In this document: piece by piece, positions 2,224 through 58,926 of the stretch
How positions within the stretch are numbered: position 1 is the first letter of the stretch
Layout: every line of letters starts with the position of its first letter
From: Candidatus Omnitrophota bacterium
GTDB lineage: Bacteria; Omnitrophota; Gorgyraeia; Pluralincolimonadales; Pluralincolimonadaceae
Direction: 5' to 3'
DNA: 64,000 bases
Assembly: GCA_028716565.1 (NCBI GenBank)
Contig: JAQUPL010000004.1
Span: 68,236 to 132,235 of the forward strand
The notes under the pieces: model-generated
What the model was told of the DNA's origin: nothing
The model's database searches: none
The model's input: the letters and a program-made list of their open reading frames with translations, nothing else
Made by a program: the position numbers and the translations under genes

Positions 2224-2224
2224 T

Positions 2225-7181: not shown

Positions 7182-7188
7182 TCCGTCC

Positions 7189-8690: not shown

Positions 8691-8698
8691 GGTCTCCT

Positions 8699-8724: not shown

Positions 8725-8728
8725 GATA

Positions 8729-8756
8729 ATTATAACTATATCCCGGATTTTGTCAA
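8729..8756 (-). promoter_or_regulatory. Sigma70-type promoter of the tetR-efflux operon
   Basis: On the minus strand, TTGACA (8756..8751) is followed by a 16-nt spacer and TATAAT (8734..8729), both consensus hexamers. The operator sits immediately downstream. Confidence 0.5.
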
Positions 8757-8779
8757 GGAAATTGTAGGTTTGGGCCCGC

Positions 8780-12132: not shown

Positions 12133-12138
12133 ATCAGA

Positions 12139-14253: not shown

Positions 14254-14313
14254 GGAAGTAATTATACCAGATTGGAAAATATTTTGGTAGCGGGAACGGT
14301 CAGTCCCGGATCA

Positions 14314-15429: not shown

Positions 15430-15439
15430 TATGCGAAAT

Positions 15440-26160: not shown

Positions 26161-26351
26161 GGCTTATTTATTTAAACTTTCGGTAATCAGAATTACGGAT
26201 GGGGGCCAATAGAATACTCCTTAGGTGATGATTATATCACAGGCGGTATCCGTATTCTAGGGCTTTGGCCTGACGGCCGATGGGCAAATTTCCTTGATTT
26301 TCATCTTCCCCATACTATAAAATGTAACCTGTTACTGCATGGAGTTACTTT

Positions 26352-27638: not shown

Positions 27639-27662
27639 TCATCTAAATTCCGGACGATACCT

Positions 27663-32858: not shown

Positions 32859-32865
32859 AGATTAA

Positions 32866-34847: not shown

Positions 34848-34860
34848 ATTTGCCCTGTCG

Positions 34861-35922: not shown

Positions 35923-36001
35923 TCTTTCTTTTCCTAAGCTTGTTGATGCCGATATAATATGATAAAATAGGCTATGTTCTTGTTAATGTCGGAAATTTAA
36001 T

Positions 36002-37438: not shown

Positions 37439-37459
37439 TAAACTAACCGCTGCGCTTCT

Positions 37460-38995: not shown

Positions 38996-39001
38996 TTATC
39001 T

Positions 39002-40282: not shown

Positions 40283-40369
40283 TCAAAAATACCCCCCTTT
40301 ATTCCTCAAGGATATTTTATGCGGAAAATGAGGCCGCCTGAGGATGAAAACCGGTATAACCAAAGAGTA

Positions 40370-42280: not shown

Positions 42281-42338
42281 TTATGCTCCCTGACAGAACT
42301 CTTTTATTTTCATAAACTTGGCATTGATTATATAACAT

Positions 42339-43388
42339 CTATGGCGAGGTGTCAAGCAACGAACCTGCCGCCTTGGAAGATTCGACGAAAATCGCTTTAA
42401 AATGAAAGAGATAAAGGCGCAGGAGCGAGTACCCGGGCAGATAAACGGCCCTCAAAACGCTTGGGCGCGGCAGGATGATCTCGAATAAGTATAAAAGCTT
42501 ATCCTTAAGCTTTTCCAAAGATAACAGGATAAAATAGAACCTTACCTTTTCGGATATATCTTTATGTATCGCCAGATCAAGGATCTTCCTCGTTAAGATG
42601 TTTTCAGCCGGCGGTTTTAATTTTTCCAAGATTTCCCGTGGGACCCGGATCCCGATTTTTATTTCGGCGGCGATAAGACAGTAGTAAACAGGGCTTTTGA
42701 CCCTAAATCTGCGGCATTTATCCAGGAACCTGGCCCAATCAAATACATTTTCATACGCATTTAATAACGCGCAAATATCCACGAACCAGATCAGCCTCTT
42801 CAACCCGTGGTGATAAAACAGGTGCAGGCAGAGCGAGATCAGCTGGTCCTCGGGCGAGAGGACCCTGACCTTTCTCCCGCTCAAAGCTATGGAACCGGAA
42901 TCTCTCCATAACTCGGCGTTATCGATATTGCAGGTTTTATGCCGGCTTTTCACCCTGACCGAATTTAATATGCTCGAATGGATATCAATGGCTATTTCGC
43001 CGTTATAAAAATCCTCCCGGCAATATTCTTCGCAAGCGTAGCCTAATTCGTTTAACTTATTTTTCGCGCGCGGAAAATCGCTTTCTTCGATTAAAAGGTC
43101 AATATCGGTTATGGGGCGTACGGCTATATTGGGGTATACCGTATCCATCAGCGAGAGGCCTTTTAAGACTATCGCATCGATACCCGCCGTTTCAAAAGCG
43201 GCCAGAACTTCGTTTAATTTCTCTTGAGCGAATAAATTGAAAGATGCGTTATTATAATAATGGCGGGCTAATCCTGAAACGAATTCAGGCGGTAATGAAT
43301 CCGAAAGGCCGGTATTTTTGATGCTATAATACAAAAGGGCGCTGAGCCCTTCCTCATGCGCCCTTTTTGCTAATTCATCAAAAACCAT
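42339..43388 (-). CDS. Uncharacterised nucleotidyltransferase-family protein (NTP_transf_5-like)
   Basis: It is 349 aa and has the Pol-beta-type NTase core with conserved Asp residues (...ITDIDLLIEESDF...). The family assignment is by recognition only. Confidence 0.55.
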   Translation of the reverse strand: MVFDELAKRAHEEGLSALLYYSIKNTGLSDSLPPEFVSGLARHYYNNASFNLFAQEKLNEVLAAFETAGIDAIVLKGLSLMDTVYPNIAVRPITDIDLLIEESDFPRAKNKLNELGYACEEYCREDFYNGEIAIDIHSSILNSVRVKSRHKTCNIDNAELWRDSGSIALSGRKVRVLSPEDQLISLCLHLFYHHGLKRLIWFVDICALLNAYENVFDWARFLDKCRRFRVKSPVYYCLIAAEIKIGIRVPREILEKLKPPAENILTRKILDLAIHKDISEKVRFYFILLSLEKLKDKLLYLFEIILPRPSVLRAVYLPGYSLLRLYLFHFKAIFVESSKAAGSLLDTSP

Positions 43389-43389
43389 T

Positions 43390-44169
43390 CTACCAGCCGG
43401 GGTTGATGATTTGTTTAGTCAAAATATATGAGGTCAACGGTTGATTTATCTTCGTGAAGAAATCTGTGGCGTTTGATATGAACGAGCGGGAGACAAAAAC
43501 GATGTCATTAGGCTGCAATAAAATATTGTTGCGTAAATTTGCCTTTGTATAGATATTTGCCACATCGATCTTTATAAGCTGGGGGTCTTTATTCTTAGTA
43601 ATATCCCCCCGTATCACCAGAACGCTTCTCGGAACCGCGTCAAGAGTGAACCCGCCGGCGCCGCTGATAGCCTCTATAAGCCGTACTTGTCCGCCATACT
43701 TATAAACACCCGGGCTCTTGACTTCACCTAATATAAATACGCTCTTGCCCTCAAATTTCTTAAGGATGACGGTGACTTGCGGATGCCTGACGTAAACGGA
43801 AAATCTTTTCGTCAGTTCTTCGTTCAATCGGCTCATGCTTAATCCATAGACATCGACCTCGCCTATCAGCGGATATGAGATTTTCCCGTCCGGACGGACT
43901 GTTATTTCCTTGGAAAGTTCGCTAATGTCCCACACTGAAATTTCGATGACATCGCCCGTACCTATGTGATATTCCAAAGGCCTCGTCCAATATTCCTCTT
44001 CTACGGCGGCCGGGGCCGGTTCTGCTTCTTTAGGAGGCCCCCCCGCAAGATAACCTTTATTCCCGGCTTGGGCTTGGGCTTGTTTCTCCTCGGAAAAGAC
44101 AGGGGCGGGCAAAAAAGCTAGGAGGCAAAGGATAAGGCTTACTGCGATAAACTGATTTTTATCTTTCAT
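43390..44169 (-). CDS. Wza-type polysaccharide export protein (Poly_export plus SLBB)
   Basis: It has a signal peptide and the PLEYHIGTGDVIEISVWD...PDGKISYPLIGEV Poly_export motif. Confidence 0.8.
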   Translation of the reverse strand: MKDKNQFIAVSLILCLLAFLPAPVFSEEKQAQAQAGNKGYLAGGPPKEAEPAPAAVEEEYWTRPLEYHIGTGDVIEISVWDISELSKEITVRPDGKISYPLIGEVDVYGLSMSRLNEELTKRFSVYVRHPQVTVILKKFEGKSVFILGEVKSPGVYKYGGQVRLIEAISGAGGFTLDAVPRSVLVIRGDITKNKDPQLIKIDVANIYTKANLRNNILLQPNDIVFVSRSFISNATDFFTKINQPLTSYILTKQIINPGW

Positions 44170-44292
44170 CTCAGGGTCATTATAACAATATCTCCCCGCT
44201 TTTTCAATAACTTTATTAATATTAATAAACTGGTTGCCAATTACTTTTTGCGGTGGTATAGTTAGGCAAAGGCGAAATAAAAACCTAATCAG

Positions 44293-45075
44293 ATGAGACC
44301 TATATTGGAAGTAGACGGGGTAACCAAGGATTTTACCCCTCCCCTCTCTTTCGGAAAATTAATCAGGTTCGATCTCAGGCGCGGGATACCGGTCAGGGCG
44401 CTCGATGACGTTTCCTTCCGCCTTGATAGGGGGAAAATACTCGCTGTCCTAGGACCGAACGGAGCGGGCAAGACCACCCTTTTAAAGATAATCGCTACAC
44501 TCCTCCTGCCTGACAAGGGCGCTGTATCGTTCAACGGCTCTGATCTTGAAGAAAAGATAAAAATGTCCGTCGGATTGGTGACTGATGAAGAGAGAAGTTT
44601 CTACTGGCGCCTTACAGGCAGGCAAAATTTGGAATTTTTTGCCGCTCTCTACGGGCTCGACGGAAAAACCGCTAAATCCAGGATAAATGAGCTGTCGGGA
44701 TTATTTGCGGTCGATTACGCAGACAAAAGGTTCGATTCCTATTCGACCGGCATGAAGAGACGTTTTGCGTTAATGAGGGGGCTGCTCCACGACCCGGAAC
44801 TCCTATTGTTAGATGAACCGACCAAAAGCCTCGATTACGCCGCCGCCTTGAGCATGAGAAACTTCGTTAAAGAAACTTTAGTGAAAACACAAGGCAAAAC
44901 CGTAATACTCGCTACCCACCATATGGACGAAGCCCTGGATTTTTGTGACTTATTTATGATATTAAATAAGGGGAAACTCCGCGCCATGGGCTCGTTAGGA
45001 CAATTACGAAAGCAAGCAGGCGATCCCGCCGCTACGCTGGGAGAGATGTTCGTGAAACTGACTACGGGGTCGTAA
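44293..45075 (+). CDS. ABC transporter ATP-binding protein
   Basis: It has Walker A GPNGAGKTT, the signature YSTGMKRRFAL and Walker B LLLLDEPT. Confidence 0.85.
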   Translation: MRPILEVDGVTKDFTPPLSFGKLIRFDLRRGIPVRALDDVSFRLDRGKILAVLGPNGAGKTTLLKIIATLLLPDKGAVSFNGSDLEEKIKMSVGLVTDEERSFYWRLTGRQNLEFFAALYGLDGKTAKSRINELSGLFAVDYADKRFDSYSTGMKRRFALMRGLLHDPELLLLDEPTKSLDYAAALSMRNFVKETLVKTQGKTVILATHHMDEALDFCDLFMILNKGKLRAMGSLGQLRKQAGDPAATLGEMFVKLTTGS

Positions 45076-45076
45076 G

Positions 45077-45883
45077 GTGCACAAAATACCGCTGGCCTTC
45101 ATAAAGAAGGACTTCCTTATTGAGTCCAGTTATAAACTGGCTTTTCTTGCCAATATCTTCGGGGTCCTGCTAAGCCTGCTGGGTTATTTCTTCATCGATA
45201 AATTATTCGGCCGGATGATGGTCAGCCATTTGGAAGAATTTGGCGTGAATTATTTTTCCTATGTCTTGCTAGGCATGGCGTTTTTCAGTTATATCGGCAT
45301 CGGGTTGGGTTCTTTTTCAAACCGGATACAGTCCGAACAAACGCAGGGGACCTTAGAAGCGGTCCTCCTGACCCCCGCCGGGATATCTACCATATTATTC
45401 TCCATGGCCTTGTGGAACCTTATCTTCGCAACTGTAGACATGGTTATCTTTATCGCCCTGGGGATCTTTTTATTCAAAATAGACTTCACCGGCATAAATA
45501 TATTATCCGCTCTTGTAACGCTGCTTTTGACAGTTGCTTCCTTTAGCGGATTAGGGATAATATCCGCAAGTTTTGTAATGGTCTTCAAGCGCGGAAACCC
45601 TCTGGGCTGGATAATAAATAGTGTCGAGGGTTTAATAGGCGGGGTCTATTTCCCCGTTACCGTATTGCCGGGGTGGCTGCAATTCCTGGCGAAATTTTTT
45701 CCCATAACTTATGCTGTCCGGGCTATGGAATTATCTGTTTATAGGGGTTATTCTCTGGCACAGCTCGCCAAAGAGGTGGGATTCCTGTTGCTATTCTCCG
45801 TGCTGCTCATCCCATTAAGTATCGTTTTTTTTAAATACAGCGTAAAGAAGGCGAAGATGGATGGCAGCCTGGCACAGTATTAA
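45077..45883 (+). CDS. ABC-2 family transporter permease
   Basis: It is 268 aa with six predicted TM helices. It lies immediately downstream of the ATPase. Confidence 0.8.
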   Translation: MHKIPLAFIKKDFLIESSYKLAFLANIFGVLLSLLGYFFIDKLFGRMMVSHLEEFGVNYFSYVLLGMAFFSYIGIGLGSFSNRIQSEQTQGTLEAVLLTPAGISTILFSMALWNLIFATVDMVIFIALGIFLFKIDFTGINILSALVTLLLTVASFSGLGIISASFVMVFKRGNPLGWIINSVEGLIGGVYFPVTVLPGWLQFLAKFFPITYAVRAMELSVYRGYSLAQLAKEVGFLLLFSVLLIPLSIVFFKYSVKKAKMDGSLAQY

Positions 45884-46294
45884 ATGATATAACCCCAGGA
45901 CGCGATTGAGGGGCGCCAAAAAAAACGATTCGAGGTCTAACGTCAGCGCGCCTTTTTGGATATGGTATATCTTGCCGAACAGATCTTTGTGTCTGAAAGG
46001 CGCGTCGGCCGTAAAAGTCCTGTCTGATTTAGTAATGAGGAGATGACGATCGCCTTTGCCCCGTTTCATTATAAGCCTGTGGGCGCATAGCTTTCCTTTA
46101 ACGCCAAACACGGCTATATCGCCGATCTTGATCTCTTTGAAAGTGATGGGCCTTATGACGACGATATCCCCTTCTTTTATCAGCGGGCCCATGCTGTCCC
46201 CTCTCGCGCACAACCTAATCGCAGATCCTTCGCGAGCCATGACTTCTTTTATGATAGAGAATGATCTCATTCCATGCATCATCACGTCCGCCAT
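45815..46294 (-). CDS. S24/S26-family (LexA or signal-peptidase-I-like) serine peptidase
   Basis: It has ARGDSMGPLIKEGDIVVIRP, the catalytic-Ser motif and fold. It is 159 aa. Its 3' end overlaps the convergent ABC-2 permease gene by 69 nt. Confidence 0.6.
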   Translation of the reverse strand: MADVMMHGMRSFSIIKEVMAREGSAIRLCARGDSMGPLIKEGDIVVIRPITFKEIKIGDIAVFGVKGKLCAHRLIMKRGKGDRHLLITKSDRTFTADAPFRHKDLFGKIYHIQKGALTLDLESFFLAPLNRVLGLYHLILCQAAIHLRLLYAVFKKNDT

Positions 46295-46459
46295 TTTAAC
46301 CCGGCCCTTATTTACGAAAGAACGCGGGTGCAGGGGGCTGTTTTTCTGCAGCCGCTAAATCCTCCCCTGGCTGTATTGCAAACCGTGGATATCACCTCTA
46401 TCCTCTTGGAAAAAATGACGGCCGGCTTGCGGTACGGCTTCTTCTTGCCTTCACGCGGG

Positions 46460-47512
46460 CTATCTTTCATCGTTTATCAATTCCTTTCTTTCCGCTACAA
46501 TTTCTCCTATTGCTTTTGCGACCGAACAATCAAAATTCGACGGTCCAAAAATATCGCCGTCTTCGGAAAGCGCTATTCCGGAACATCTAAAACAAAATTG
46601 CACGAGGCCGCATCTCTTGCATTCCGGGAGGTCGGGCAGTTTTATATTTCTTACGAACTTTAACCCCTCCGAGGAACGCCATATATCCCCAAGCTTCTCT
46701 TCATGGAGGTTGCCCAATTTTACGTTCAACCCGATACAGGGATAAACATCGAGATGGGGCGTAATAAAAATATTATTGAATCCGGCGATGCAAAGAAGCG
46801 CATCGCCATCAGCCTCTCTTTTCTTAAGGGGGATACTGTTTGATACGAAGAAATCTTTGATCTTCTCCTCATTGAGCCTGTATTTCAAGGGGCCTTTCGA
46901 GCCGTCGTTCCTGCCCACGACGCAATAATCAAATACAAAATCCGCGCCGATCTCCCCCGCTAAAGACTCAACAGCCCTAAACTCTTCAATATTGTCGTTC
47001 ATGATAAGGAACTTAAGGACGACTTTTATGTTCTTTTCCCTGAGAAGCGTCGCTGCTTTTATTGTCTTATCGAAAGAACCCGGGGAAAAAGTAATGGCAT
47101 CGTGCAGGCCCTTATCGGCGGCATATATGCTCGTCTCGACCGCCAAAGGATGGAGAGACGCTATTTTCCCGCTGACAGTTTCGTCGACCAAAGTGGCGTT
47201 GGTCATCAACCGCAGGGCGAAACCCTGCTCTCTCGCATATGACGCGATATCAAAAAAATCATCCCTCATCAAAACCTCTCCGCCGCTGAGGGTAAGATAA
47301 AGACAGCCCATATTTTTGAGCTCATCTATGACGGATCTTGCCTTTTCATAAGAAAATTCCTGTCTGCCTTTCGCCCCGGCGGCGTAACAATGCCTGCATC
47401 CTAAATTGCATTTATAGGTCAATTCCCAATGGGCCATGAAGCAGATAAAATCATCCATTGTCTTGCGGTATATCCTTAAATACTGGTCTTTGGTAGTGTC
47501 GACTTCTCTCAT
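46460..47512 (-). CDS. Radical SAM/SPASM-domain maturase (PqqE or anSME-like)
   Basis: It has the CNLGCRHC radical SAM cluster motif and the C-terminal SPASM cysteines CKRCGLVQFCFRCSG. It is 350 aa and sits immediately downstream of the PqqD-like gene. Confidence 0.85.
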   Translation of the reverse strand: MREVDTTKDQYLRIYRKTMDDFICFMAHWELTYKCNLGCRHCYAAGAKGRQEFSYEKARSVIDELKNMGCLYLTLSGGEVLMRDDFFDIASYAREQGFALRLMTNATLVDETVSGKIASLHPLAVETSIYAADKGLHDAITFSPGSFDKTIKAATLLREKNIKVVLKFLIMNDNIEEFRAVESLAGEIGADFVFDYCVVGRNDGSKGPLKYRLNEEKIKDFFVSNSIPLKKREADGDALLCIAGFNNIFITPHLDVYPCIGLNVKLGNLHEEKLGDIWRSSEGLKFVRNIKLPDLPECKRCGLVQFCFRCSGIALSEDGDIFGPSNFDCSVAKAIGEIVAERKELINDER

Positions 47513-47513
47513 C

Positions 47514-47795
47514 TTATTTGATCTCTACCGCCCCTCTTTGTACCATATCCTCTATGAACTCGGTGATGTCTTTCAGCGCCTCTTCATGCGTGGCGTCGAA
47601 TTCCGATATGACCGCGGCGCTGATCTCGTCGATATTCCTCTTCCCGTCCATGATCTCCCATATGCGCGAACCGACGTCGCTCAAAACAATGGTCTCCTGT
47701 TTATCCAAAAGGACGATAACGGCCTCTCCGTCTATGATCCTTGAAGCGGTCTTGCCGGATTTGACCGGTATCTTTGTCTTCATATCCACGGTCAA
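47514..47795 (-). CDS. PqqD-family peptide chaperone (RRE domain)
   Basis: It is 93 aa and has the typical PqqD pattern ...GEAVIVL...ETIVLSDVGSRIWEIMDGKRNIDEISAAV...EALKDITEFIEDMVQRG. Confidence 0.75.
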   Translation of the reverse strand: MTVDMKTKIPVKSGKTASRIIDGEAVIVLLDKQETIVLSDVGSRIWEIMDGKRNIDEISAAVISEFDATHEEALKDITEFIEDMVQRGAVEIK

Positions 47796-48634
47796 TTCTC
47801 TCTCTTTGAGAACGCTATTTCAGATTTAAGCCCTTCTATGTGGAGCCAGAACGACGGCTCCGGCAGGAAATGCAGCCCGTAACAAGGCACGGCGGACAGA
47901 AGCTCCGAAAATGCCGCGAGCAATCCATCCCCGGGGATCAGCCCTGCCGGTATATGGGGTACGGTAAATAGATTCGCCAGGGCATACGCGGGCGAGAATC
48001 TCTCCAGATACACCGTCTTGTCTTTTATCAATTTAAACAAGCCCTTTATCCGGTAAGGCTTGTTCTGCCTCGGCCCTATTTGCCTATCTCCCCAGGCCGG
48101 AGTGGGAAAAACCTTAAATTCACCGTCAACTTTCTTGGCGAGTATCAGGTCGTCGCTTAAGATAACCCTGCCCGGAGATAAGCCGGCTACCGTGGACTTG
48201 CCTGCGGTAGACGGGCCGATAAATACGTGCGCCTCTTCCCCTTCCAATACGCCCGCCGCGTGCAGGGCTATCCCCCCGTCTTCCAGGACCACCAAAAATG
48301 TGTAAAGATTCCTCAGAAAAGTGCCCAACGGATACAGGGGATTCAGGGGATTTAACTTTATCCGGCCGCGTCTTTTTGAGAAATCCAGACTGCCTAAAAG
48401 GCAGTCATCCTCTATGACCATGGCGCCGTCTTTAAAAACAAGCTTCGAAAAAGGGAAATATTCCGGCGGCGCATCGCGGGTCAACTCTACATCGACGGAA
48501 AGCGCCGGCTCGGCGTCGGAAAGAAATGCATCATATGCTTCGAGAACATCTTTAACAAAAGATGCGTGGCTCTCTTCATCGATGTTGAGACCTACTATAT
48601 GGCCGGCGACCTCTATCCTGAGTTTTCTTTTCAT
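47792..48634 (-). CDS. HPr-kinase C-terminal-domain-like P-loop protein (HprK-related kinase)
   Basis: It is 280 aa with the P-loop GPSTAGKST followed by SDD, as in the HprK/P catalytic domain. The RBS GGGAGAGA lies in the 17-nt gap after the giant gene. Confidence 0.6.
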   Translation of the reverse strand: MKRKLRIEVAGHIVGLNIDEESHASFVKDVLEAYDAFLSDAEPALSVDVELTRDAPPEYFPFSKLVFKDGAMVIEDDCLLGSLDFSKRRGRIKLNPLNPLYPLGTFLRNLYTFLVVLEDGGIALHAAGVLEGEEAHVFIGPSTAGKSTVAGLSPGRVILSDDLILAKKVDGEFKVFPTPAWGDRQIGPRQNKPYRIKGLFKLIKDKTVYLERFSPAYALANLFTVPHIPAGLIPGDGLLAAFSELLSAVPCYGLHFLPEPSFWLHIEGLKSEIAFSKREN

Positions 48635-48651
48635 CTCTCCCTGGAAAAATC

Positions 48652-51600
48652 TTAGTCTTCCGGCTCCTTAGATTCCTTAGAACCGTCTTTCCATCTTTCG
48701 TTGTCTTTGACGTTTGTCAAGACTTCCCGGAGGATATTCGCAAAACTATCCGCCGGTATAGACAGCGAAGGCTGATTACTACCGGACTGTATCTCTATTT
48801 TTTTAACTTTTATATTCTTCTCTATATTTAAAGACAAAGCCGGGTCTCCAAAGAGAGTCTGCGTTTGTATCAAATCTTTATGCTGTCCTCCCGTATTTGA
48901 AAAAAAGTTTATCTTCGCTTTGGTTGTGGCGGGGCCAAGCCTGTAATTGCCGTCCACAAAGATCGATTTGTATAATTCTTCGCTTAAGGCCTGATGCCCT
49001 TCCGGCACGCCCATGCCCGTAGGAGAAAAACAGGCGATCGCGCCGGCGTCTCTTCTCTTCAAAAACACCTCGGCCAGAGATTCGTTCCCCTCTTCCGGGT
49101 GCAGGAAATAACCATCCAGGCAATCAAAGGAGACGACAAAGGGATACTTGCGGTAATTATCTAATAAACCGACCGTACCCGTATTAAATAATCCCTCCTG
49201 GGTCCAAAGGTCGGTCGAGCCGTGTCCTACGTAATTCAGCAAGACCGCGCCGCTATTTATATTATTTATCATGTCCCGGGTAAATTGTGAATAATCCGCG
49301 TAACCGGAAAGATATAATTTCACCGGAATTGCCTTCTTGGGCAGATACTGCAGCAGGTTATCCGAGATCTGTTCAAAGAGCGCCTCGTCATCTGCCGCAA
49401 GAACGACTTTTCTGCTGTATTCCCTGGAACGCAGATTGGCATAAACCACGGTTTTCCTGACTACGTTATCGACTTCGTCCTCGTTCCTTGCGGGGATCCT
49501 GCCGATGAACATATCCGGCAATATATCATCCTGGACTTGCCCGCCGACAAGTTGCGGGGGGTCCAGGCACACAAACCAGTTATCCGAAGCGGTCTCGCCC
49601 AGATACGGCACGTCAGGCAACAGGTAGGCCGGGACGTAGTTTATTTTCCCGGAACCCAGACAATCCCTATAATCGTAATTCGCGTCGCCGACCAGGAGAA
49701 CATACGTAGGCACCGGATGCCGCCACCTATTATAGGCGAATCTTAGGAAATCTTTTATCGCATACGGGCTCACAAGGCCATAATTAAATTCGTCGTATAC
49801 ATCCTCGACGTCGACTACGCTGACGTTCAGCCTTTTATTCCTATACAATCTCTCAAGCGGGGAGAGGCTGTTTTTAAAAGCCCCGTATGAAATTACTATA
49901 TAGTCGGCCTTGTTTTCCGGTGAAGACAGCTTCGAGGGCGCATCGATCTTCAGGCGCTCGGCTAAATTCGCTTTATCCGGGGTCAGGGCGAGGAACCTCT
50001 TTTCCTCACCCGGCTTGAAATCGTACCTGAATATTAACGAATATGAACCGTTCGTTTGGAATACGACCCTAAACCCGGTGACATATTTGGCCGTTGCCGG
50101 CTCGGTTATATCAAATAATTCGGCGTCATCTCTCGTAAACCCGGATATATTGAACTCGTCCACGCCGCCGTTAACCGACTTATAAGAAAAATCCAGGAGA
50201 TTGTCATCCGCGACAAAATTCCGCCAATATTCCACCTCGAAGTAGTTCGGCACAAGAAGGTCGTATTCTGCCCCCGGAGGAAGCTGCGCCGCTATAGTTA
50301 TAGTGTTGCCGCCCTCGACAAGGACGTCCTGCGGCACATTTATCTCTACCACATGTTCATCCTGGCCCTCCCATGACACATAATCAATAAGCCCATTATT
50401 CAGATAGGTCGATGTTTGATGGCCGACGTCAAATAGGGCGTAATAAGCGACTCTCACCTTAGCCTCATCTCCGGGATGGAGGAGATTTATGTCTTTAAGA
50501 TCTATCTGGTAATCAACCTGCGCCCCTCCCCAGATGTAGCTATCCCAAAACCAGCGGTCAACATCCTCGGGGCCTTTGCGCTCGCCCCAATAATAATCGT
50601 TCTTCTCTAAGCGCGTTACGGCCCTAAACCTGTCGGGGGCTTCCGCCGGCTCGTGAGTGTCGGCAGGCGCATTCTCCATCCTCAATCCCGCTCCCTGGTC
50701 GTAGGTAAGCCAATATACATTCTCTTTTGAATATTTTGAATTATTGGCTTGGGCGTAAAATTCAATATAGTCATAACGGCCGAATATCCCGTCTTCTTCC
50801 CCGGAAATACGCAGGGCTACTTCCTTCCCTTTGTTATAACACCTTATCTTGCGCGGATCCAACCGCATTATATCGTAAAAATCAGCGTTCCAGAGGTCAT
50901 CCCACCCTATCCGGTGCAGCCCTTCTTTTGTGGTGTATGCCTTCACCTTAGAATACTTGCCGGGCAAAGGCAGGGGCGGCTCTACCGGCGGGTTGACTTC
51001 GTTGGCGCTGAATTGCAGCTTGACCCTTATCCTTTTATAAAATTTCAAGTCATGACGGGCCGGATTAAAAGCCAGGGGAGCGATGTTCACGCAAGCCGTT
51101 CTTTGGCCCCTCATTTCTCCCACGAACCCGAGGCTGACTATATCAACGGGATAATATTCATCCGCAGAATAAAATTTCTTGTCTACTATAAGCTGCGATT
51201 CTATCTTCTTGAACCGGGGTTTTTCTGCTTTCAAATTTTCATCGGCAGTCATTGTTTTCTTTAAGTCCCCGATAACGCGGGAAGTTCTGACAGGATAGAT
51301 ATTGTAGCCGGATAGTTCGACCACATCAAAATCCAGGTCCGCGACGGCGCAAGATACGCCTTGCGGAATGCTTAACAGGACCGGCTTGAGCGGCATCCGG
51401 GGTTTCCCCTGTTCATCGGTATATCCGTGCTCGTATCCGGGGATCCCAAGGACCTGATACGTGACCCCGCCTATCTTTTTAGGGGTCGCCTTAAATTCTG
51501 AGGTTACGAGCTCCAGGGTAATGCCTGATTCGTCAGAATTGATTACGCGTATCCCTTCTTGCGCCTCTTCCTCTTTTTGCTTCGGGTCCGTGCCGTGTAA

Positions 51601-54600
51601 GAATTCCTCTAAATTAGTGAACCCGTCGCCATCCGGGTCAAGCGAGGCATCGCCAGGATCGTGGGGATCAAACCCGTGATAGATCTCCCAATCATCAGTC
51701 ATACCGTCGCCATCCGAATCCAGCCCCGGATGGGCCGTTACGGGTCCGTGCATCCTGGTGCGGCCGCTGAATTCCACGTCCTCCAACTTATAATAATAGG
51801 TATTGCCGCCGGTTACGTTGCCGTCGGGATAGAAATACTCCCCTCCTATGGTGGAGGTGCCCAGGCCCGGGATCAGCGAAGGATTTAATTTTGTATAAGG
51901 CCCGTTTTTGTTCGTGCTCACGTAAAGGTTAAAACCCGCATTATTGTATTCCGAGGCCGTATTCCAACGAATATCTACTTTGTCAAAATAACCAATGGCG
52001 TAAAAAGACGTCAATTTAACAAGGGTTGGCGAAAACCAGTTGGTGTTATTCCCTCCGTCGTTGGAATTATCGGGATTGATATAATTAGCATTGAGGTTGA
52101 CGGAATTTGATACATCCACATACGCGGCTGTCCAGCCGGGTGACGCGCCTTTAGAACCGGCCGGATATACGGCCCATTGGTTCGAGCCGCTTCCGTCCGA
52201 ACGGCCCAGTGTTATCTGGTTACCCGCGCCCGAGGCGCCGGAGAAATTCAGGTTATTGGTGACAGTCGTGCAATAATTATTGGGGGGAGTTTCCACGTTA
52301 AAAAGCAATGTCTTGCCCGCGGTCGTGCAGGTCAAGTTATAGAATGAGGTGCTTCCGTATATGGTCGAGGTCCTGGTATTATCGTTAAATACAACTGTGC
52401 CGCCGTTGGCGATGACCTGGGCGGAAGTCCCCAGATTCTTAAAATTCCCCCCTACGGTGGTTGTGCCGCTTGAAAGAGTGAGCTCGGCATTTGCGGTGGA
52501 TTCAGGAACAGTTCCGCTCGTTACGATACCAAGTTCAAGCCCGATACTGTGAGTGCCGCTTCCTAAATCAATGTAAGAGATATCAGAGCCATTTATTCTG
52601 GGATATACATGCATATCCAATCCTACCGTGATGTTGCCTGTCGTAACGTTTACCTGGCCTACGCATGCAAATTCGGTCAGGTTCCACTCCCCCGCGTCAA
52701 ACCATCCCGAACTTACAATATTGTACTGGTTGACGTTAAGGACGTTAGTCGTATTCTGGCCCTGATGGCCTGTCTGCCAATTTCCGGAATGGGTCACGTT
52801 CCCCGTAAGGGTCAATGTGGCGCCGTTGGCAATAAATATCTGGGTGGTCGACAGGTCCCCGCCATTCATGGTGGTGGGGGCAGCTAAGTCGAACCAAAGC
52901 TCCGTCACGTAAATTGTGCCGCTGTTTACGATCGTAGCGCCGTATACAAAAATCTTTTGATTAGCTACGCTTTGCTGGAGAACGCCTGTCCCGACGGTCA
53001 ACGTCCCATGGATATCGAAGCCCATCCAGTCGGCGCCCATGTTGATCGAAGTAGTCTTGCCGGCATAGCCGCATGTTAAACTATTGAAAGTTATGTAGTG
53101 GCTATGGCCGATTATCGAGCCCGTGCCCTTAAGGTCGACGAGAGAAGTGCCCCATTGAAAGTTAGCCTGTACGTTCACATCGAAGTTGCCTGTCGTGGCG
53201 TCTTGAATGGTTATCGTCGAGGCGTTCGCGTAGAAAGGACCGTTTATGGTTATAGTACCGTTTGTGCCGCCGTCGCCGGTAGTGAGGTTTTTGCTGGTCG
53301 CGGCGTCGTCGTCAAGGGTGGTAAAGTATTTCCCCGAGTTGTTTGTAAATGTCCCGTCGAGAACGAGGTTATTAGTATGGATATAATTCCTGCTGCCGGT
53401 GGTACCGCCGTTATTGACAAGATTGCCCAAATGCGCGCTGGAATTTATGTATTTGCCGTCGCCTGTCATGGTAAGGGTATTCTTGGTGGTTGTGGCTCCG
53501 AAAGCGGTTATTACCACATTTCCCGAAGCGGATACGGTATTGGTCTGGCTGTTGGTGAATGTCCCTGCATTGGTGAAATCAGCGCAGGATAGGGAACAGT
53601 CCGCGGTATTGGCGGTATAGGTGCCGCCGGCCTCGATAGTGAAATTCCCGCAAACGAGCGAACCGTTATTTGTGATGACGCCGTTCACGTGAGACAAAAG
53701 TTCTGCTGAAAAAGTGCAGGTGCTGCCGCTCCCCACGGTAAAAGAGCAGTGGTCGCTGCCGTTTACCGAGTCATTTATCCAAAAGTTGACTGCGGTTATA
53801 TCTCCCGAACCGGTGGTCACCTGGCCCACTTCTGTCCCGGATGTATCACGGCCGATGAGAAAATTTCCTGAGGATGTAAGATCGTAACCGTCGAGGTTAA
53901 GGACGGCGGTCGAATTAGCTTGCCAAAAGCCTACTCTCCACTCATTAGAGGCGGTCACTGCCCCGGCCAGGGTCACTATGCCCCTGCCGATCTGGATGTG
54001 TTCGGCTGTGTAGACGCCGCCGCCCATGGTGGCGGTGCCCGCGCTGCTGCCGAGCTCAAACTCGAGCTCCACAGGGTTGCACGTTCCGCTGTTAACTATC
54101 GTCGAGCCGTTTTTCATCTGGACTTTTCTCTCGAAAGGGCTGGTAAGAGTGGCTCCGGATAGTATGGTCAGGGTATGATAAACCTGTATGCCTTCCCACG
54201 AGGCATCGGAAGTGGCTGTTACGGTAGGAGTCGCGGACACTTTACCGATAGTCAAATCATAAAATCCGGCTCTAAAGACTCCGCCGCTGCCGGCCGCGCT
54301 CTGTATCTCGGAAGTTACCTGGATGACGACCGTAGAGGTACCGTAAATAAAGGTGCCGTCCACGTCAAAGTTGCCGCCGGCGCCTGTCAGAGTGATAGTT
54401 TTGTTAGAAGCATCCAGGGTACCCGTGCTGCTGATCTTAATATGCTGGGTAAGATCTATGGAGGAAAGCAGGGTATAACTGCCTGAGACATCCAGGTTAT
54501 AAAAAGCATCGGAGTTACTGGAGGTGGTGGTTATGTTTTTCCCGGCGCCGGATAGGTTTACCCAGGATGCGCCTGTGCCCGGTGTGAAAGTCCCTGTGCC

Positions 54601-57600
54601 GGAGACCTCCCAATTACCGCCGACTATTAAAGTGTGGCCTCCCGAATTATCAAGCGTGCCGACAGTGACCGTCATATCGTCGAACTCGCAGGCCGAGTCG
54701 AGGACTATGCTGTCGCCTGCCTCGTCGAGGTTGGTAGCCACCTGGATATCCATGTTATTAAGGTGGACGGTCTTGGTATTGAAGTCGATGTTATTGTTGG
54801 TAAGGGCCCTCTTGGCGCCTGACGAGCCCTTGATGATGATATTGTTGGTCGAGTTGGTTAAGACTATGCCCTCCCCGTCCGCGTTGCCGTTGTTTACTAT
54901 CGAGCCGCCGACCTCTACGGTCACGCTCGCGCTCGAGGCATCCAGGGAAAGGGATTTATTGTCGTTTATCGTCAAGGTGTTAGAGGTGGTGATATTAGTA
55001 TTTTGGGTATAGGTGCCGTTGACCGTAAAGTTATAGAATGTGGTCGTGCCGCCTCCGGTCAGAAGCTTGGTCGTGCCGGCTACCGTGGTGGTGCCGGAGC
55101 TGGACTGGGAGATGGTGCCGGCATTCCTTATATCGTCTGAGACGCTTAAGTTCTTGGCGCCCATGCTTAAGGTGGCGCCGGATTCTATCTGGAGGTCTCC
55201 GGTGCCCTGGACGGTCACGTTGCCGCCCGGGGCGAAGGTCTTGGCGCTTGAACCCTCCAGGAAGAGCTCGATATTGCTGTCTACGGTTAGATTGCCGCCT
55301 GAGGCGGCCGAGACGGAGTAGAGCACATCGCTATCCCCGTCATCCGCATTGTAGAGGTCGTCATTTGTCATGTTGGTCGTGTCTGTGTTGAATACGACGA
55401 GATGGTCCTGGTATATATTTACGCCTGATACGTTGCCGGCGCCGGAGCACCTGTAGGCCGTGGTCCCTTTTGTGGCGCCTCCAGTATTTAGATAGACACA
55501 GATTATATAATTATCGGCCAGGGTACCGTTCGTGATCGTGTATGTCCCTCCGGGATCAGAGGTCGTGGTTGTGTAGACGGATCTCGTGGCTCCGTTATAA
55601 ACGACTACCGTGACGGCTGTGTTGGTTATGGGCGTGGTTTCGGTGTCGTCGGTAAAAGCGGTCCCTGATATAGTCGATGTGCCGAATATCCAGTTTATGT
55701 TATTGCCCGAGTCTGTACCGCTTGTTACAATAATGGTAGCGGGAGTTCCTCCTATGCAGGTCTGGTCTTGCACATCCACGTCTACCATAGTGAAGGTGCC
55801 CGCGCCCTGCCAGTTACGTTGGGTCGGGCTGGCGCTCGACCTTATCTGGATGAGGTCTCCCGTAGGCGCGTCAAACGCTATAATCCCGGCATTGCTGACG
55901 CCTCCGGACAGCGTTACGTTGGCGTTATCGGTCACATTGGTCCACTTTGAGGTAGCATCTGAAAGGGTAACAGCCCCTGTCGTAATCGCGACCTGCTGTA
56001 TTAATTCTCCGTCTGTTATGGTCAATGTCCCGCTTATCGTCGGGGCGTCATTCTGGAAGGTAACATTATCATCGGCACCGGTAGCCGCGGTCTTGTTGAT
56101 CCGGATGTTGTTATAACCGGAGGTGGCCGGCGCGCCGGCATCGAATGTCGTGCTCGTTGTCCCGTATAAAATAAGCGTTCCTGCGGCATTAACGGTGCCG
56201 TTATTATCCCAGTTGCCTCCTACGCTGGTCGTGGCGCTCGAAAGAGTGAGGCGGGCTTGAGCGGCGCCATTGGTCGCGTCGATCGTAACATTGCCTGAAA
56301 ATGTATGGGTACCGCTTCCTAAGTCAATTGAAGATTTAGCGCCGCTGTTATCGGCGCTAAATACATGGAGAGTGGCCGCGGTTATGCTGCCTGCTCCGCA
56401 GGTTATCTGCCCCACCCGTGTTAGACAGCCGCTTTGTCCGACATTAATATTAGCCGTAGGCACGTTAATGTTCTTGCCGTTGAGATTAAGTATGCTCGTC
56501 TTGTTTTCGGCGCCGACATTATAACCTATCCGCCAATCTCCGGAATCGGTTATATCCCCGCCGAGGGTGAGTGTGCCGCCTGCGGTCATTTGGATCGCCG
56601 TATCCTCGTAATCCCCTCCGCCCAGGGTGGCGGTGCCGCCGGTGACGATCGCGAACTCGAGCTCGGTCACATTGATCACACCGCCGTTGACCACTGCCGA
56701 GGTGTCATACATCACGACCCTTCTTTCCGCCGCAGATGTCAGGGTGCCTGTCGCCGCCGTAGTCAGGGTCCCGCGCACATCTATGCCGTTCCACGCGTCG
56801 CCTCCGGTAACCGTTGTGGTCTTACCGGCGGCGGCGCAGGTCAGGTTATAAAATTTTGCCTGAAACCAGCCGTCGCTCACTAAGTTCCCGGTACCCTGCA
56901 GGTTGACCGTAGAGGTACCGTAGTTAAAAGTGCCGGTCACGGTCAAGTGGCCGTCGCCTGTCATGGTTATGGTCGAACTGTTAGCCGTAAAAGTGCCGTT
57001 AATGGTTATCGCACCGGCTGAGGACAGGCTCCTGCCTGCCCCGGCCGAAGCGGTATAAGAGGCACTCGCCTTGTTCTCGAAGGTGCCGCAGGCGATCGAA
57101 CCGTTATTTGTGATAACGGAGGCGTTCGTGCCGTTGCCGTTGGTAATGCCGTTTGAGCCCGCCGCGATGCTTCCGCTCGCGGTTACGGTAATTGTGCCGT
57201 AGGTGTTGGTGATCGTCCCTCCCACCGTCGCGGTGTAAGCTCCGGTCGTAAAAGAAGTGGTGGCGTTGCCGTTCAAGGTAACGGCGTCGAACTCGCAGGC
57301 CGAGTCGAGGACTATGCTGTCGCCTGCCTCGTCGAGGTTGGTAGCCACCTGGATATCCATGTTATTAAGGTGGACGGTCTTGGTATTGAAGTCGATGTTA
57401 TTGTTGGTAAGGGCCCTCTTGGCGCCTGACGAGCCCTTGATGATGATATTGTTGGTCGAGTTGGTTAAGACTATGCCCTCCCCGTCCGCGTTGCCGTTGT
57501 TTACTATCGAGCCGCCGACCTCTACGGTCACGCTCGCGCTCGAGGCATCCAGGGAAAGGGATTTATTGTCGTTTATCGTCAAGGTGTTAGAGGTGGTGAT

Positions 57601-58926
57601 ATTAGTATTTTGGGTATAGGTGCCGTTGACCGTAAAGTTATAGAATGTGGTCGTGCCGCCTCCGGTCAGAAGCTTGGTCGTGCCGGCTACCGTGGTGGTG
57701 CCGGAGCTGGACTGGGAGATGGTGCCGGCATTCCTTATATCGTCTGAGACGCTTAAGTTCTTGGCGCCCATGCTTAAGGTGGCGCCGGATTCTATCTGGA
57801 GGTCTCCGGTGCCCTGGACGGTCACGTTGCCGCCCGGGGCGAAGGTCTTGGCGCTTGAACCCTCCAGGAAGAGCTCGATATTGCTGTCTACGGTTAGATT
57901 GCCGCCTGAGGCGGCCGAGACGGAGTAGAGGATATTTGCATTACCGTCGTCAACCTTGTAAAGGTCATCGTTGGTCATGTTGGTCGTGTCGTTATTAAAC
58001 ACGACAACATGGTCTTTATAAAGGTTAAGGTTGGATACGTTGCTTGTGCCTCCGCATCTATAGACTGAGGTAGCCTTATCGCTGCCGGTAAGGCAGGCAC
58101 TGATTATATCGTTATCTCCGAGCTCTCCGCTTTGAAGGGTCACGGAATAGACGCCGTTGGCATCTGTCGTGGCCGTAAAACTGGACGTCCTGGACAATGA
58201 GCTGTCGTAGACGATCACCCTGACGGGCGCGCCGGATATAGGAGTAGCTTCGGTGTCATCGGTGTAGACGGTGCCTCCCACGGTGGGCCCCGAGGGAGCG
58301 GATGTACCGGCGTACAAATCGTCCAAACTCACCGCACCGCTACAACCGGAGGCCCAGTCCTTTATCCCAAAGACCGGCCGGCCATAAGCAGCAGTGGACG
58401 GTGACGTAATTTTTGCGGATACATTTTTCCAAATATTATAAGGATCGGTACCGTCCGGATAAAGATAGCCTATGAAATCTTCCGAGATCTTCGCACTCCC
58501 TGATGTATACCACTCGACTTTAAGGTACCCATTCCAAAGGTGCAAGGGGTCGGTAGACAGATTATAAAAATAAGCATTAAAGTAATAGTCTGTACTCGCG
58601 GTTACGGCAAAGTCCTGCCAGAGACCAGAATCATCCCACCACATCTTTACTGCCTTTGAGCCGCTGATCGTATGGTTATAATCGTTGTGATGCCAGCCGC
58701 TATTACCCCAGCTGCTCCAGTCAGTGATCGTTACATAGCCTAATTGCCCTGTATCGCCTACTTCAAAATCTCCGTTCTTTACAAGGCCCAGGTCTCCCGC
58801 GACGGCTTCGTTGCAGGCGGCAAACAGCGAAAATACCGCCGCAAAAAGCAAAAGGGCGGGAAAAAATCCCGCCATTTTGTCGCTGAAAAATCCTTTTATT
58901 TTGTTAGACCCTTGCCTAACTTTCAT
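48652..58926 (-). CDS. Giant secreted multidomain protein (3424 aa): a CBM4/9-like N-terminal domain, a CarboxypepD_reg-like domain, about 2000 aa of T/G/N/S-rich parallel-beta-helix-type repeats, a beta-sandwich domain, thrombospondin-type-3-like Ca-binding repeats, and a C-terminal peptidase C25 (gingipain-like) domain
   Basis: It has a signal peptide, and the N-terminal domain begins NGDFEVG...W. The C-terminal 420 aa align to gingipain hallmarks: ADYIVISYG...TYVLLVGD, NYVGHGS (catalytic His, cf. RgpB NYTGHGS) and PFVVSFDCLDGYF (catalytic Cys, cf. PFIFDVACVNGDF). DSDGDGMTDD...DPDGDGFTN forms calcium-binding repeats. The possible true start is MAGFFPALLLF at 58875. Confidence 0.85.
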   Translation of the reverse strand: MKVRQGSNKIKGFFSDKMAGFFPALLLFAAVFSLFAACNEAVAGDLGLVKNGDFEVGDTGQLGYVTITDWSSWGNSGWHHNDYNHTISGSKAVKMWWDDSGLWQDFAVTASTDYYFNAYFYNLSTDPLHLWNGYLKVEWYTSGSAKISEDFIGYLYPDGTDPYNIWKNVSAKITSPSTAAYGRPVFGIKDWASGCSGAVSLDDLYAGTSAPSGPTVGGTVYTDDTEATPISGAPVRVIVYDSSLSRTSSFTATTDANGVYSVTLQSGELGDNDIISACLTGSDKATSVYRCGGTSNVSNLNLYKDHVVVFNNDTTNMTNDDLYKVDDGNANILYSVSAASGGNLTVDSNIELFLEGSSAKTFAPGGNVTVQGTGDLQIESGATLSMGAKNLSVSDDIRNAGTISQSSSGTTTVAGTTKLLTGGGTTTFYNFTVNGTYTQNTNITTSNTLTINDNKSLSLDASSASVTVEVGGSIVNNGNADGEGIVLTNSTNNIIIKGSSGAKRALTNNNIDFNTKTVHLNNMDIQVATNLDEAGDSIVLDSACEFDAVTLNGNATTSFTTGAYTATVGGTITNTYGTITVTASGSIAAGSNGITNGNGTNASVITNNGSIACGTFENKASASYTASAGAGRSLSSAGAITINGTFTANSSTITMTGDGHLTVTGTFNYGTSTVNLQGTGNLVSDGWFQAKFYNLTCAAAGKTTTVTGGDAWNGIDVRGTLTTAATGTLTSAAERRVVMYDTSAVVNGGVINVTELEFAIVTGGTATLGGGDYEDTAIQMTAGGTLTLGGDITDSGDWRIGYNVGAENKTSILNLNGKNINVPTANINVGQSGCLTRVGQITCGAGSITAATLHVFSADNSGAKSSIDLGSGTHTFSGNVTIDATNGAAQARLTLSSATTSVGGNWDNNGTVNAAGTLILYGTTSTTFDAGAPATSGYNNIRINKTAATGADDNVTFQNDAPTISGTLTITDGELIQQVAITTGAVTLSDATSKWTNVTDNANVTLSGGVSNAGIIAFDAPTGDLIQIRSSASPTQRNWQGAGTFTMVDVDVQDQTCIGGTPATIIVTSGTDSGNNINWIFGTSTISGTAFTDDTETTPITNTAVTVVVYNGATRSVYTTTTSDPGGTYTITNGTLADNYIICVYLNTGGATKGTTAYRCSGAGNVSGVNIYQDHLVVFNTDTTNMTNDDLYNADDGDSDVLYSVSAASGGNLTVDSNIELFLEGSSAKTFAPGGNVTVQGTGDLQIESGATLSMGAKNLSVSDDIRNAGTISQSSSGTTTVAGTTKLLTGGGTTTFYNFTVNGTYTQNTNITTSNTLTINDNKSLSLDASSASVTVEVGGSIVNNGNADGEGIVLTNSTNNIIIKGSSGAKRALTNNNIDFNTKTVHLNNMDIQVATNLDEAGDSIVLDSACEFDDMTVTVGTLDNSGGHTLIVGGNWEVSGTGTFTPGTGASWVNLSGAGKNITTTSSNSDAFYNLDVSGSYTLLSSIDLTQHIKISSTGTLDASNKTITLTGAGGNFDVDGTFIYGTSTVVIQVTSEIQSAAGSGGVFRAGFYDLTIGKVSATPTVTATSDASWEGIQVYHTLTILSGATLTSPFERKVQMKNGSTIVNSGTCNPVELEFELGSSAGTATMGGGVYTAEHIQIGRGIVTLAGAVTASNEWRVGFWQANSTAVLNLDGYDLTSSGNFLIGRDTSGTEVGQVTTGSGDITAVNFWINDSVNGSDHCSFTVGSGSTCTFSAELLSHVNGVITNNGSLVCGNFTIEAGGTYTANTADCSLSCADFTNAGTFTNSQTNTVSASGNVVITAFGATTTKNTLTMTGDGKYINSSAHLGNLVNNGGTTGSRNYIHTNNLVLDGTFTNNSGKYFTTLDDDAATSKNLTTGDGGTNGTITINGPFYANASTITIQDATTGNFDVNVQANFQWGTSLVDLKGTGSIIGHSHYITFNSLTCGYAGKTTSINMGADWMGFDIHGTLTVGTGVLQQSVANQKIFVYGATIVNSGTIYVTELWFDLAAPTTMNGGDLSTTQIFIANGATLTLTGNVTHSGNWQTGHQGQNTTNVLNVNQYNIVSSGWFDAGEWNLTEFACVGQVNVTTGNITVGLDMHVYPRINGSDISYIDLGSGTHSIGLELGIVTSGTVPESTANAELTLSSGTTTVGGNFKNLGTSAQVIANGGTVVFNDNTRTSTIYGSTSFYNLTCTTAGKTLLFNVETPPNNYCTTVTNNLNFSGASGAGNQITLGRSDGSGSNQWAVYPAGSKGASPGWTAAYVDVSNSVNLNANYINPDNSNDGGNNTNWFSPTLVKLTSFYAIGYFDKVDIRWNTASEYNNAGFNLYVSTNKNGPYTKLNPSLIPGLGTSTIGGEYFYPDGNVTGGNTYYYKLEDVEFSGRTRMHGPVTAHPGLDSDGDGMTDDWEIYHGFDPHDPGDASLDPDGDGFTNLEEFLHGTDPKQKEEEAQEGIRVINSDESGITLELVTSEFKATPKKIGGVTYQVLGIPGYEHGYTDEQGKPRMPLKPVLLSIPQGVSCAVADLDFDVVELSGYNIYPVRTSRVIGDLKKTMTADENLKAEKPRFKKIESQLIVDKKFYSADEYYPVDIVSLGFVGEMRGQRTACVNIAPLAFNPARHDLKFYKRIRVKLQFSANEVNPPVEPPLPLPGKYSKVKAYTTKEGLHRIGWDDLWNADFYDIMRLDPRKIRCYNKGKEVALRISGEEDGIFGRYDYIEFYAQANNSKYSKENVYWLTYDQGAGLRMENAPADTHEPAEAPDRFRAVTRLEKNDYYWGERKGPEDVDRWFWDSYIWGGAQVDYQIDLKDINLLHPGDEAKVRVAYYALFDVGHQTSTYLNNGLIDYVSWEGQDEHVVEINVPQDVLVEGGNTITIAAQLPPGAEYDLLVPNYFEVEYWRNFVADDNLLDFSYKSVNGGVDEFNISGFTRDDAELFDITEPATAKYVTGFRVVFQTNGSYSLIFRYDFKPGEEKRFLALTPDKANLAERLKIDAPSKLSSPENKADYIVISYGAFKNSLSPLERLYRNKRLNVSVVDVEDVYDEFNYGLVSPYAIKDFLRFAYNRWRHPVPTYVLLVGDANYDYRDCLGSGKINYVPAYLLPDVPYLGETASDNWFVCLDPPQLVGGQVQDDILPDMFIGRIPARNEDEVDNVVRKTVVYANLRSREYSRKVVLAADDEALFEQISDNLLQYLPKKAIPVKLYLSGYADYSQFTRDMINNINSGAVLLNYVGHGSTDLWTQEGLFNTGTVGLLDNYRKYPFVVSFDCLDGYFLHPEEGNESLAEVFLKRRDAGAIACFSPTGMGVPEGHQALSEELYKSIFVDGNYRLGPATTKAKINFFSNTGGQHKDLIQTQTLFGDPALSLNIEKNIKVKKIEIQSGSNQPSLSIPADSFANILREVLTNVKDNERWKDGSKESKEPED
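54677..55323. repeat. Copy 2 of a 647-bp, 100%-identical intragenic direct repeat, the core of a diverged 2607-bp tandem duplication
   Basis: It is identical to 57284..57930. The opposite-strand shadow ORFs 55040..55321 and 57647..57928 give identical 93-aa products. Identity decays in the flanks. Confidence 0.85.
57284..57930. repeat. Copy 1 of the 647-bp identical intragenic direct repeat
   Basis: It is identical to 54677..55323 at an offset of exactly 2607 bp (869 codons), so it is in frame. It encodes LYSVSAASGGNLTVDSNIELFLEG...SACEFD in both copies. Confidence 0.85.

Follow-up and report, generated by a model that had tools for sequence, protein, structure and literature searches.

How can two segments of one gene be identical letter for letter when the modules around them have diverged to saturation? 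The question is raised by a large open reading frame (ORF) of 3424 amino acids (aa) in a stretch of 64,000 nucleotides (nt) from a Candidatus Omnitrophota bacterium (assembly GCA_028716565.1, contig JAQUPL010000004.1, positions 68,236 to 132,235; hereafter, the window). The ORF occupies positions 48652-58926 of the minus strand and contains two copies of one segment, referred to below as the core, on either side of a spacer, M. We consider it likely that an ancient duplication of modules, a recent conversion of one core by the other, and the in-frame loss or gain of a whole unit together account for this arrangement.

A perfect in-frame repeat within one ORF

Base-by-base comparison at an offset of 2607 nt revealed a perfect direct repeat of 646 nt (54678-55323 and 57285-57930) with zero differences, and this pair is the sole exact repeat of at least 27 nt, direct or inverted, within the 64-kb window. 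The offset equals 869 codons, both copies lie in one reading frame of the ORF, and the identical peptide comprises 215 aa (aa 333-547 and aa 1202-1416) plus one shared nucleotide. An original prediction, made from the letters alone, had described a 647-bp repeat from 54677 and an identical core of 216 aa (about aa 333-548 and 1202-1417). Its perfect identity, its 2607-nt offset and its frame hold, but position 54677 is a T and position 57284 a G, which leaves 646 nt and 215 aa plus a base; the prediction had also named mismatches between the cores as what might undo it, and re-alignment yielded 0 of them. The spacer M between the two cores is a unique sequence of 1961 nt, and M together with one core makes up the 2607 nt that core-by-core recombination would add or remove.

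Chance is excluded by this comparison as the source of the 646-nt identity, because the homologous flank of the two copies is only 61% identical in nt, which gives a probability of ~1e-139 (0.61^646). We propose instead that the duplication that produced A1-B1 and A2-B2, the module pairs described below, is ancient, and that the 646-nt core of one A module would have been copied recently over the other by intragenic gene conversion, i.e., by non-reciprocal homologous recombination. The outcome would be the perfect in-frame direct repeat, 2607 nt apart, and its two copies could in turn recombine by RecA-type unequal crossover or by single-strand annealing. By both routes, exactly one 869-aa A-B unit would be deleted or re-duplicated while the frame and the domain boundaries are kept. 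Homologous recombination between identical direct repeats of 646 nt, well above the minimal processing segment, is efficient in bacteria. Length variants would presumably arise in this way within populations, and their length may be of functional relevance.

Identical cores within ancient modules

In a self-comparison, the gene resolved into two A modules, at aa 215-547 and at aa 1085-1416, with three B-like modules as well. Module A consists of an N-terminal flank, a, and the core, and runs over ~333 aa from GT.YTDDTE to SACEFD; the 869-aa period is the sum of A (333 aa) and B1 (536 aa), and M comprises B1 and a2. The tandem 869-aa module that had been predicted to extend from GT[VA][YF]TDDTE to SACEFD is thus borne out in its period, but these motifs delimit only the ~333-aa module A, with a 536-aa B module completing the period.

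The two flanks preceding the cores, a1 and a2, are 53% identical in aa and 61% in nt, and their synonymous divergence (pS) of 0.75 indicates saturated synonymous sites. The sequences that follow the two cores share 39% of aa and 50% of nt, and their alignment needs indels. The original prediction had put the flanks at roughly 50-70% identity. Between these flanks pS drops from 0.75 to 0, and the distal edge of the tract coincides with the end of alignable homology; zero differences over 646 sites bound the divergence of the cores at roughly 0.5%. An identity island with sharp edges inside ancient paralogous modules most likely reflects recent gene conversion, because the identical core sits within old flanks that are saturated at synonymous sites. 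The recent homogenization of the cores suggested by the original prediction is supported by the same contrast between 0 differences in 646 nt and a neighbouring pS of 0.75.

The edges of the tract were also compared with the domain structure. The C-terminal edge is the end of module A, and the N-terminal edge is no domain boundary, as it cuts through the middle of a segment that remote homologues conserve. Remote homologues align without interruption across the junction between a and the core, and the orthologue described below carries its core at the same place. On these alignments, the core belongs to the A domain itself and is not an inserted element, because both the remote homologues and the orthologue are colinear through it.

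This colinearity bears directly on a different reading, in which the core would be a functional or mobile element at the sequence level: an RNA or regulatory element, an insertion resembling a miniature inverted-repeat transposable element or an intein, or the template and variable repeats of a diversity-generating retroelement. Nothing specific speaks for such an element, apart from antisense ORFs that overlap the cores, and these differ in extent between the two copies; an Rfam scan of the window returned no family. We regard this reading as scarcely credible. The retroelement pair was rejected on its own terms, in an analysis that annotated the immediate neighbours of the gene, given the lack of A-specific mismatches (none of any kind over 646 nt) and a tract far longer than the repeats of such elements, and the mobile-element, retroelement and functional-RNA readings were set aside together on colinearity, mismatch and Rfam evidence.

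One-module orthologues in a sister lineage

The closest genomes are the Omnitrophota metagenome-assembled genomes (MAGs) fen_1319 and C4_maxbin.042. In fen_1319, the locus runs collinear with the window on either side at ~85% nt identity, and the sole structural difference found by blastn is the 2607-nt unit. Its protein has 2554 aa and a single module composed of an a1-like flank, one core, and then the sequence found downstream of copy 2. The flank of the fen_1319 protein is 86% identical in aa to a1 and 50% to a2 (86-88% to a1 across the one-module orthologues), and its core is followed directly by SACEFDDMTV..., as after copy 2 in the window. Further downstream, aa 549-700 of the fen_1319 protein are 76% identical to the sequence after copy 2 vs 43% to that after copy 1. 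A second orthologue, P0154 (2552 aa, 94.8% identical to the fen_1319 protein), has the same one-module architecture; four contigs, drawn from at least three ENA assemblies, encode it in full synteny. B1 is absent from both orthologues.

In sequence, these one-module junctions are exactly the product predicted for a crossover from core to core. They also bear out the earlier suggestion that recombination would add or remove precisely 869 aa in frame: the gene differs by one such unit between the window (3424 aa) and a sister lineage ~15% diverged in nt, whose 2554- and 2552-aa proteins carry the predicted junctions. The two-module state was probably ancestral and then lost in the sister lineage, because B1 and a2 appear to be as old as the B2/B3 split that is common to both lineages.

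A recent gain in place of gene conversion was considered as well. A one-module ancestor could have acquired M and a core copy recently by recombination with a diverged paralogue or relative, for example by way of a two-module donor allele or by integration of an M-core circle, and such an insertion would have left the core duplication as its footprint. Such a gain would agree with M being found nowhere else, with a one-module state that two diverged representatives of the sister lineage show and that was assembled cleanly five times, with a core centre as far from the fen_1319 core as a paralogue and hence compatible with imported sequence, and with the mosaic character of the gene relative to fen_1319. 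However, a donor for insertion by whatever homologous route would itself have to contain core-M-core, and this only shifts the question. In addition, a2 and B1 are nearer to a1, B2 and B3 of their own gene (53% and 35-47% aa) than the best outside matches are to their queries (at most 43% for module A and 39% for M), the G+C content at third codon positions (GC3) and codon usage of M match those of the neighbouring modules, and B1 is as old as the B2/B3 split and so predates speciation. A recent gain in place of conversion is, in our view, decidedly improbable.

A mosaic history of the core

Compared with fen_1319, the gene is mosaic through recombination: along its length pS varies between 0.03 and 0.75, and nt identity between 52 and 99% in windows of 60 nt and 60 codons. 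Between the window and fen_1319, pS amounts to 0.28-0.33 for the flanks and 0.39-0.47 for the edges of the core, and it rises to 0.75 in the core centre (aa 371-490). The core centre (57456-57815 and 54849-55208; aa 371-490 and 1240-1359) shares 67.5% of nt with the fen_1319 core and is as diverged as true paralogues, while the edges are orthologue-like. The window core is thus not a plain orthologue of the fen_1319 core, because pS reaches 0.75 in its centre vs 0.28-0.47 in flanks and edges, and paralogous sequence has replaced at least the centre in one of the lineages. The divergence of the centre points to an earlier patch replacement, separate from the event to which the two copies owe their identity. 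Relative to the fen_1319 core, pS is 0.39-0.75 vs 0 between the window's own copies, a comparison that draws on a single genome with both copies sequenced. As to direction, the pattern would fit copy-2-type sequence having overwritten copy 1.

In the B3 region, positions 52278-53477 are 91-98% identical in nt to fen_1319, against a locus background of ~85%, which suggests recent exchange between the lineages. GC3 was also inspected as a possible signature of biased conversion; the core reaches 0.77 vs 0.67 in fen_1319 and ~0.62 in the flanks, but this signal was judged weak, as early B1 is similarly GC3-rich.

Support from independent assemblies

The repeat was followed into independent assemblies. 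Two Logan contigs of run SRR22315506, assembled with k=31, are 100% identical to the window. One (L001) spans 36460-54707 and ends exactly 30 nt (k-1) inside core copy 2, and the other (L002) begins at 57901, exactly 30 nt inside core copy 1. Logan contigs hold every 31-mer only once (PMC12424806), and breaks at these points are what a true repeat would produce at its outer edges. A Joint Genome Institute (JGI) contig from sample 3300037067 (L007), 94.6% identical in nt to the window over 16 kb, starts at the equivalent of 54776, which lies 99 nt into the core from the distal boundary at which L001 also breaks, with 2 of these 99 nt differing from the window core; this fits a K=99 repeat break in a second population. 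Taken together, the Logan and JGI breaks suggest that the repeat is present in the reads. A JGI scan yielded only L005, an N-terminal fragment that stops short of module A, and L006, a 38% relative. SRR22315506 was unmentioned in the literature searched, and an exact database look-up of the giant protein and of its WbqC-like neighbour found no record.

The warning that this is a site of assembly hazard has proved apt, with the Logan contigs stopping 30 nt inside the outer edges and the JGI contig starting 99 nt inside the core. The copy number (two or more) and the perfect identity are not guaranteed by the assembly, because independent contigs break inside the repeat. The threading of a collapsed node, or a mixture of strains, could therefore lie behind the perfect identity, the count of two copies or the position assigned to M; in the real genome the cores would then differ slightly, the units would number more than two, or one- and two-module alleles would occur side by side. 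Besides the contigs that fail to cross the repeat, this possibility gains from the fact that a one-module allele adds no new 31-mers and would be invisible in the graph. A single traversal of a loop is also a common assembler default. Against it stand the simplest linear path through the implied graph, U-core-M-core-D, which holds at least 2 cores if M belongs to the gene, and M itself, a bona fide in-frame sequence of A/B type with the codon usage of its neighbours. A second assembler, moreover, reproduces the exact outer edges, and comparable identity patches occur in genes of other genomes. An artefact of this kind is unlikely in our estimation.

Several considerations nevertheless weigh against a recent conversion followed by unit loss or gain. 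If the window derives from a short-read graph assembly, a collapsed core node may have been traversed twice, in which case the copies would be identical by construction, small true differences may have been merged, and the loop of M and core may be present more than once. The Logan break points prove the outer edges only, and neither identity throughout the core nor copy number. The K=99 reading of the JGI break presupposes that assembler setting. The one-module genes come from a lineage ~15% diverged and represent evolutionary rather than ongoing variation, with no within-population length variant observed. Finally, M has no close homologue among 5.8 billion proteins, with a best outside match of at most 39%, which makes a gain in the window lineage conceivable.

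Architecture of the encoded protein

From its N-terminus, the ORF encodes a hydrophobic signal-like segment, an unannotated N-domain, the series A1-B1-A2-B2-B3, TSP3 repeats, a C25 propeptide and a C25 peptidase. The coordinates of the main features are collected in Table 1.

Table 1. Features of the large ORF and its repeat, in window coordinates.
Feature	Position	Strand	Basis and remarks
Giant ORF, 3424 aa	48652..58926	-	ORF list, translation, Pfam, self-comparison
a1, N-terminal part of A1; predicted transthyretin / Ole e 1-like beta-sandwich and linker	57931..58284	-	aa 215-332; AlphaFold2, Foldseek, weak Pollen_Ole_e_1 match
Core copy 1, promoter-proximal	57285..57930	-	aa 333-547 and first base of codon 548
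B1 module	55675..57284	-	aa 548-1084; 35-47% aa identical to B2 and B3
a2, N-terminal part of A2; old paralogue of a1	55324..55674	-	aa 1085-1201
Core copy 2, distal	54678..55323	-	aa 1202-1416 and first base of codon 1417
B2 and B3 modules, after core copy 2	52300..54677	-	aa 1417 to about 2210
Peptidase_C25 domain, C-terminal	48829..49902	-	aa 3009-3366; Pfam, PDB sequence search

The peptidase assignment is carried by a full-length match to Peptidase_C25 (PF01364; aa 3009-3366, E=1.3e-81, 275 bits at a cut-off of 23, profile positions 1-374 of 374), and Pfam likewise matched Propeptide_C25 (PF08126; aa 2456-2641, 50 bits) and TSP3_bac repeats. The best PDB match of the C25 domain is PorU (6za2, E=1.3e-14), followed by gingipains (about 1e-8). 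In the alignment to 6za2, NYVGHGS stands opposite NYAGHGG and SFDC opposite TATC; the NYVGHGS and SFDCLDG segments presumably carry the catalytic His and Cys of gingipains and PorU, the latter being the type IX secretion sortase. Pfam recognized no C-terminal domain of the type IX secretion system or other anchor in the 3424-aa protein, and no family for the core, module A, the B modules or the N-domain. On this annotation, the gene product is predicted to be a secreted modular protein with a C-terminal C25 cysteine peptidase.

AlphaFold modeling of module A from a 23-sequence alignment (predicted local distance difference test score 79.8, predicted template-modeling score 0.83) yielded a putative beta-sandwich followed by a stack of short strands that would hold the 215-aa core. 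The beta-sandwich is weakly similar to transthyretin and Ole e 1 folds according to Foldseek and Pfam, and the core may be described, in the model, as the beta-solenoid-like part of module A.

Distribution of module A and of identity patches

A word-indexed homology search with module A gave no matches, and its homologues came from an exhaustive HMMER search, which placed the module in at least 152 representative proteins, mostly of 1-7 thousand aa. One of these, MDD2942629.1 (7038 aa), has 12 copies of module A, one per 520-600 aa. Module A (57286-58284), with its predicted beta-sandwich and solenoid-like core, is a candidate new domain family.

Patches of perfect identity recur in other giant genes with module A. 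One contig (L008) has a 328-nt in-frame patch at offset 2412 (4137-4464 and 6549-6876) within an island of ~480 nt that is at least 90% identical, and another (L010) has perfect in-frame patches of 120-249 nt, including 249 nt at 627-875 and 5586-5834. Patch lengths across such genes include 328, 249, 197 and 172 nt, and the genes include one for an ENA protein and one for a TPS-domain protein in GCA_964430735.1. Judged from these alignments, genes of this class seem to undergo patchy intragenic conversion commonly.

A bolder version of the conversion account would make the core a maintained recombination cassette, kept identical by repeated conversion in the lineage of the window and the JGI contig, with populations continually yielding one-, two- and three-unit variants; we offer this tentatively and hold it to be doubtful. 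If true, it would amount to a length switch of the Periscope kind discussed below, operating from a dispersed repeat in a secreted C25 protease-adhesin of a putatively host- or prey-associated phylum, and the identity patches in other module-A genes would hint at a general family property.

Relation to known systems

Concerted evolution by gene conversion is known for bacterial tufA/tufB and rRNA operons. The present case resembles these in its sharply bounded identity tract within diverged paralogous sequence, and the tract may, as there, differ more between lineages than within the genome. Unlike in those cases, the paralogues here are modules of one ORF, and their identity also permits the in-frame loss or gain of a unit.

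In Periscope Proteins (SasG, Rib, Sgo_0707 and CdrA among them), DNA repeats of high identity have been proposed to drive intragenic recombination and thereby the in-frame gain and loss of entire folded units (Whelan et al. 2021, PMC8201768). As in the present gene, long DNA repeats of very high identity lie within a secreted multidomain protein, and orthologues differ by integral units: here 3424 vs 2554 and 2552 aa, a variation seen only between lineages ~15% diverged in nt. In contrast to Periscope Proteins, the two identical segments form a dispersed pair 1961 nt apart with no tandem array, and 215 of the 869 aa of the unit are identical, the remainder sharing 39-53% of aa. Further differences are that no cell-wall or membrane anchor family was recognized in Pfam, that the C25 peptidase lies at the C-terminus, and that length variation is known between lineages only. 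The original prediction had pictured a surface protein with a stalk of variable length. A functional domain projected on such a rod-like stalk is conjectural here; the features bearing on it are the hydrophobic signal-like segment at the N-terminus and the modeled sandwich and strand stack of module A. High-identity repeats also allow intragenic recombination and length variation in Helicobacter pylori cagY (Aras et al. 2003, PMC2194252). That gene carries a great many short repeats, spread over two regions, and its within-host variation is demonstrated, whereas the present gene, from an uncultured environmental bacterium, has a single long repeat pair. By analogy, the gene may work like the Periscope and cagY systems, but we do not file it as a Periscope Protein, because its repeats form no tandem array and its surface anchoring is conjectural.

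Within the Omnitrophota, repeats are known to fragment assemblies of genes for very long proteins (West-Roberts et al. 2023, 10.1101/2023.11.21.568195; 10.64898/2026.06.07.730766), and a 2026 survey of the phylum found the repeat architectures of long proteins mostly ancient, with nucleotide identity dissolved (10.64898/2026.06.07.730766). The present protein comes from the same phylum and is likewise large, repetitive and predicted to be secreted, with TSP3 repeats and a peptidase domain; at 3.4 thousand aa it is, however, far below the 'giant' class and belongs to neither the Archaeovorin nor the Dockerin type. It resembles gingipains and PorU in its full-length Peptidase_C25 and Propeptide_C25 matches, and differs from them in that the catalytic domain lies at the C-terminus, after ~2,400 aa of beta-rich modules.

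The locus is a local exception to the mostly ancient repeats of Omnitrophota and qualifies the view that, at the nucleotide level, the repeats of their long proteins are ancient throughout. It offers a clear case, from an environmental genome, of apparent patchy conversion between old intragenic modules that would create a substrate for in-frame module loss or gain, and the natural one-module orthologues display the predicted recombination product. The mechanism proposed is not new; intragenic recombination between identical repeats is already known, and the route would be an ordinary one for length change in large repetitive secreted proteins. In practical terms, this is a place at which genes of the family break up in short-read assemblies or may have their modules counted wrongly, and protein lengths in MAG catalogues need to be treated with care.

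Genomic neighbourhood

Directly downstream of the gene (46460-48634, minus strand; likewise L003, 17683-19857, and L007, 6149-8471) lie genes for a 280-aa ScmC-like protein (weak match), a PqqD-like protein of ~90 aa and a radical SAM/SPASM enzyme, to which relatives add a 52-aa ORF. This set, which resembles a maturation system for ribosomally synthesized and post-translationally modified peptides, is syntenic with the giant gene throughout the four lineages observed. Elsewhere in the window, G+C content falls from ~0.54 (1-16000) to 0.42-0.45 (26000-44000) across polysaccharide-synthesis genes (Wzz, Wzy, flippase, Poly_export), and the low-G+C region may be an exchangeable surface-polysaccharide island. 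The only other exact repeat in the window is a 26-nt perfect palindrome at 8699-8724, between two minus-strand ORFs, and is probably a terminator hairpin.

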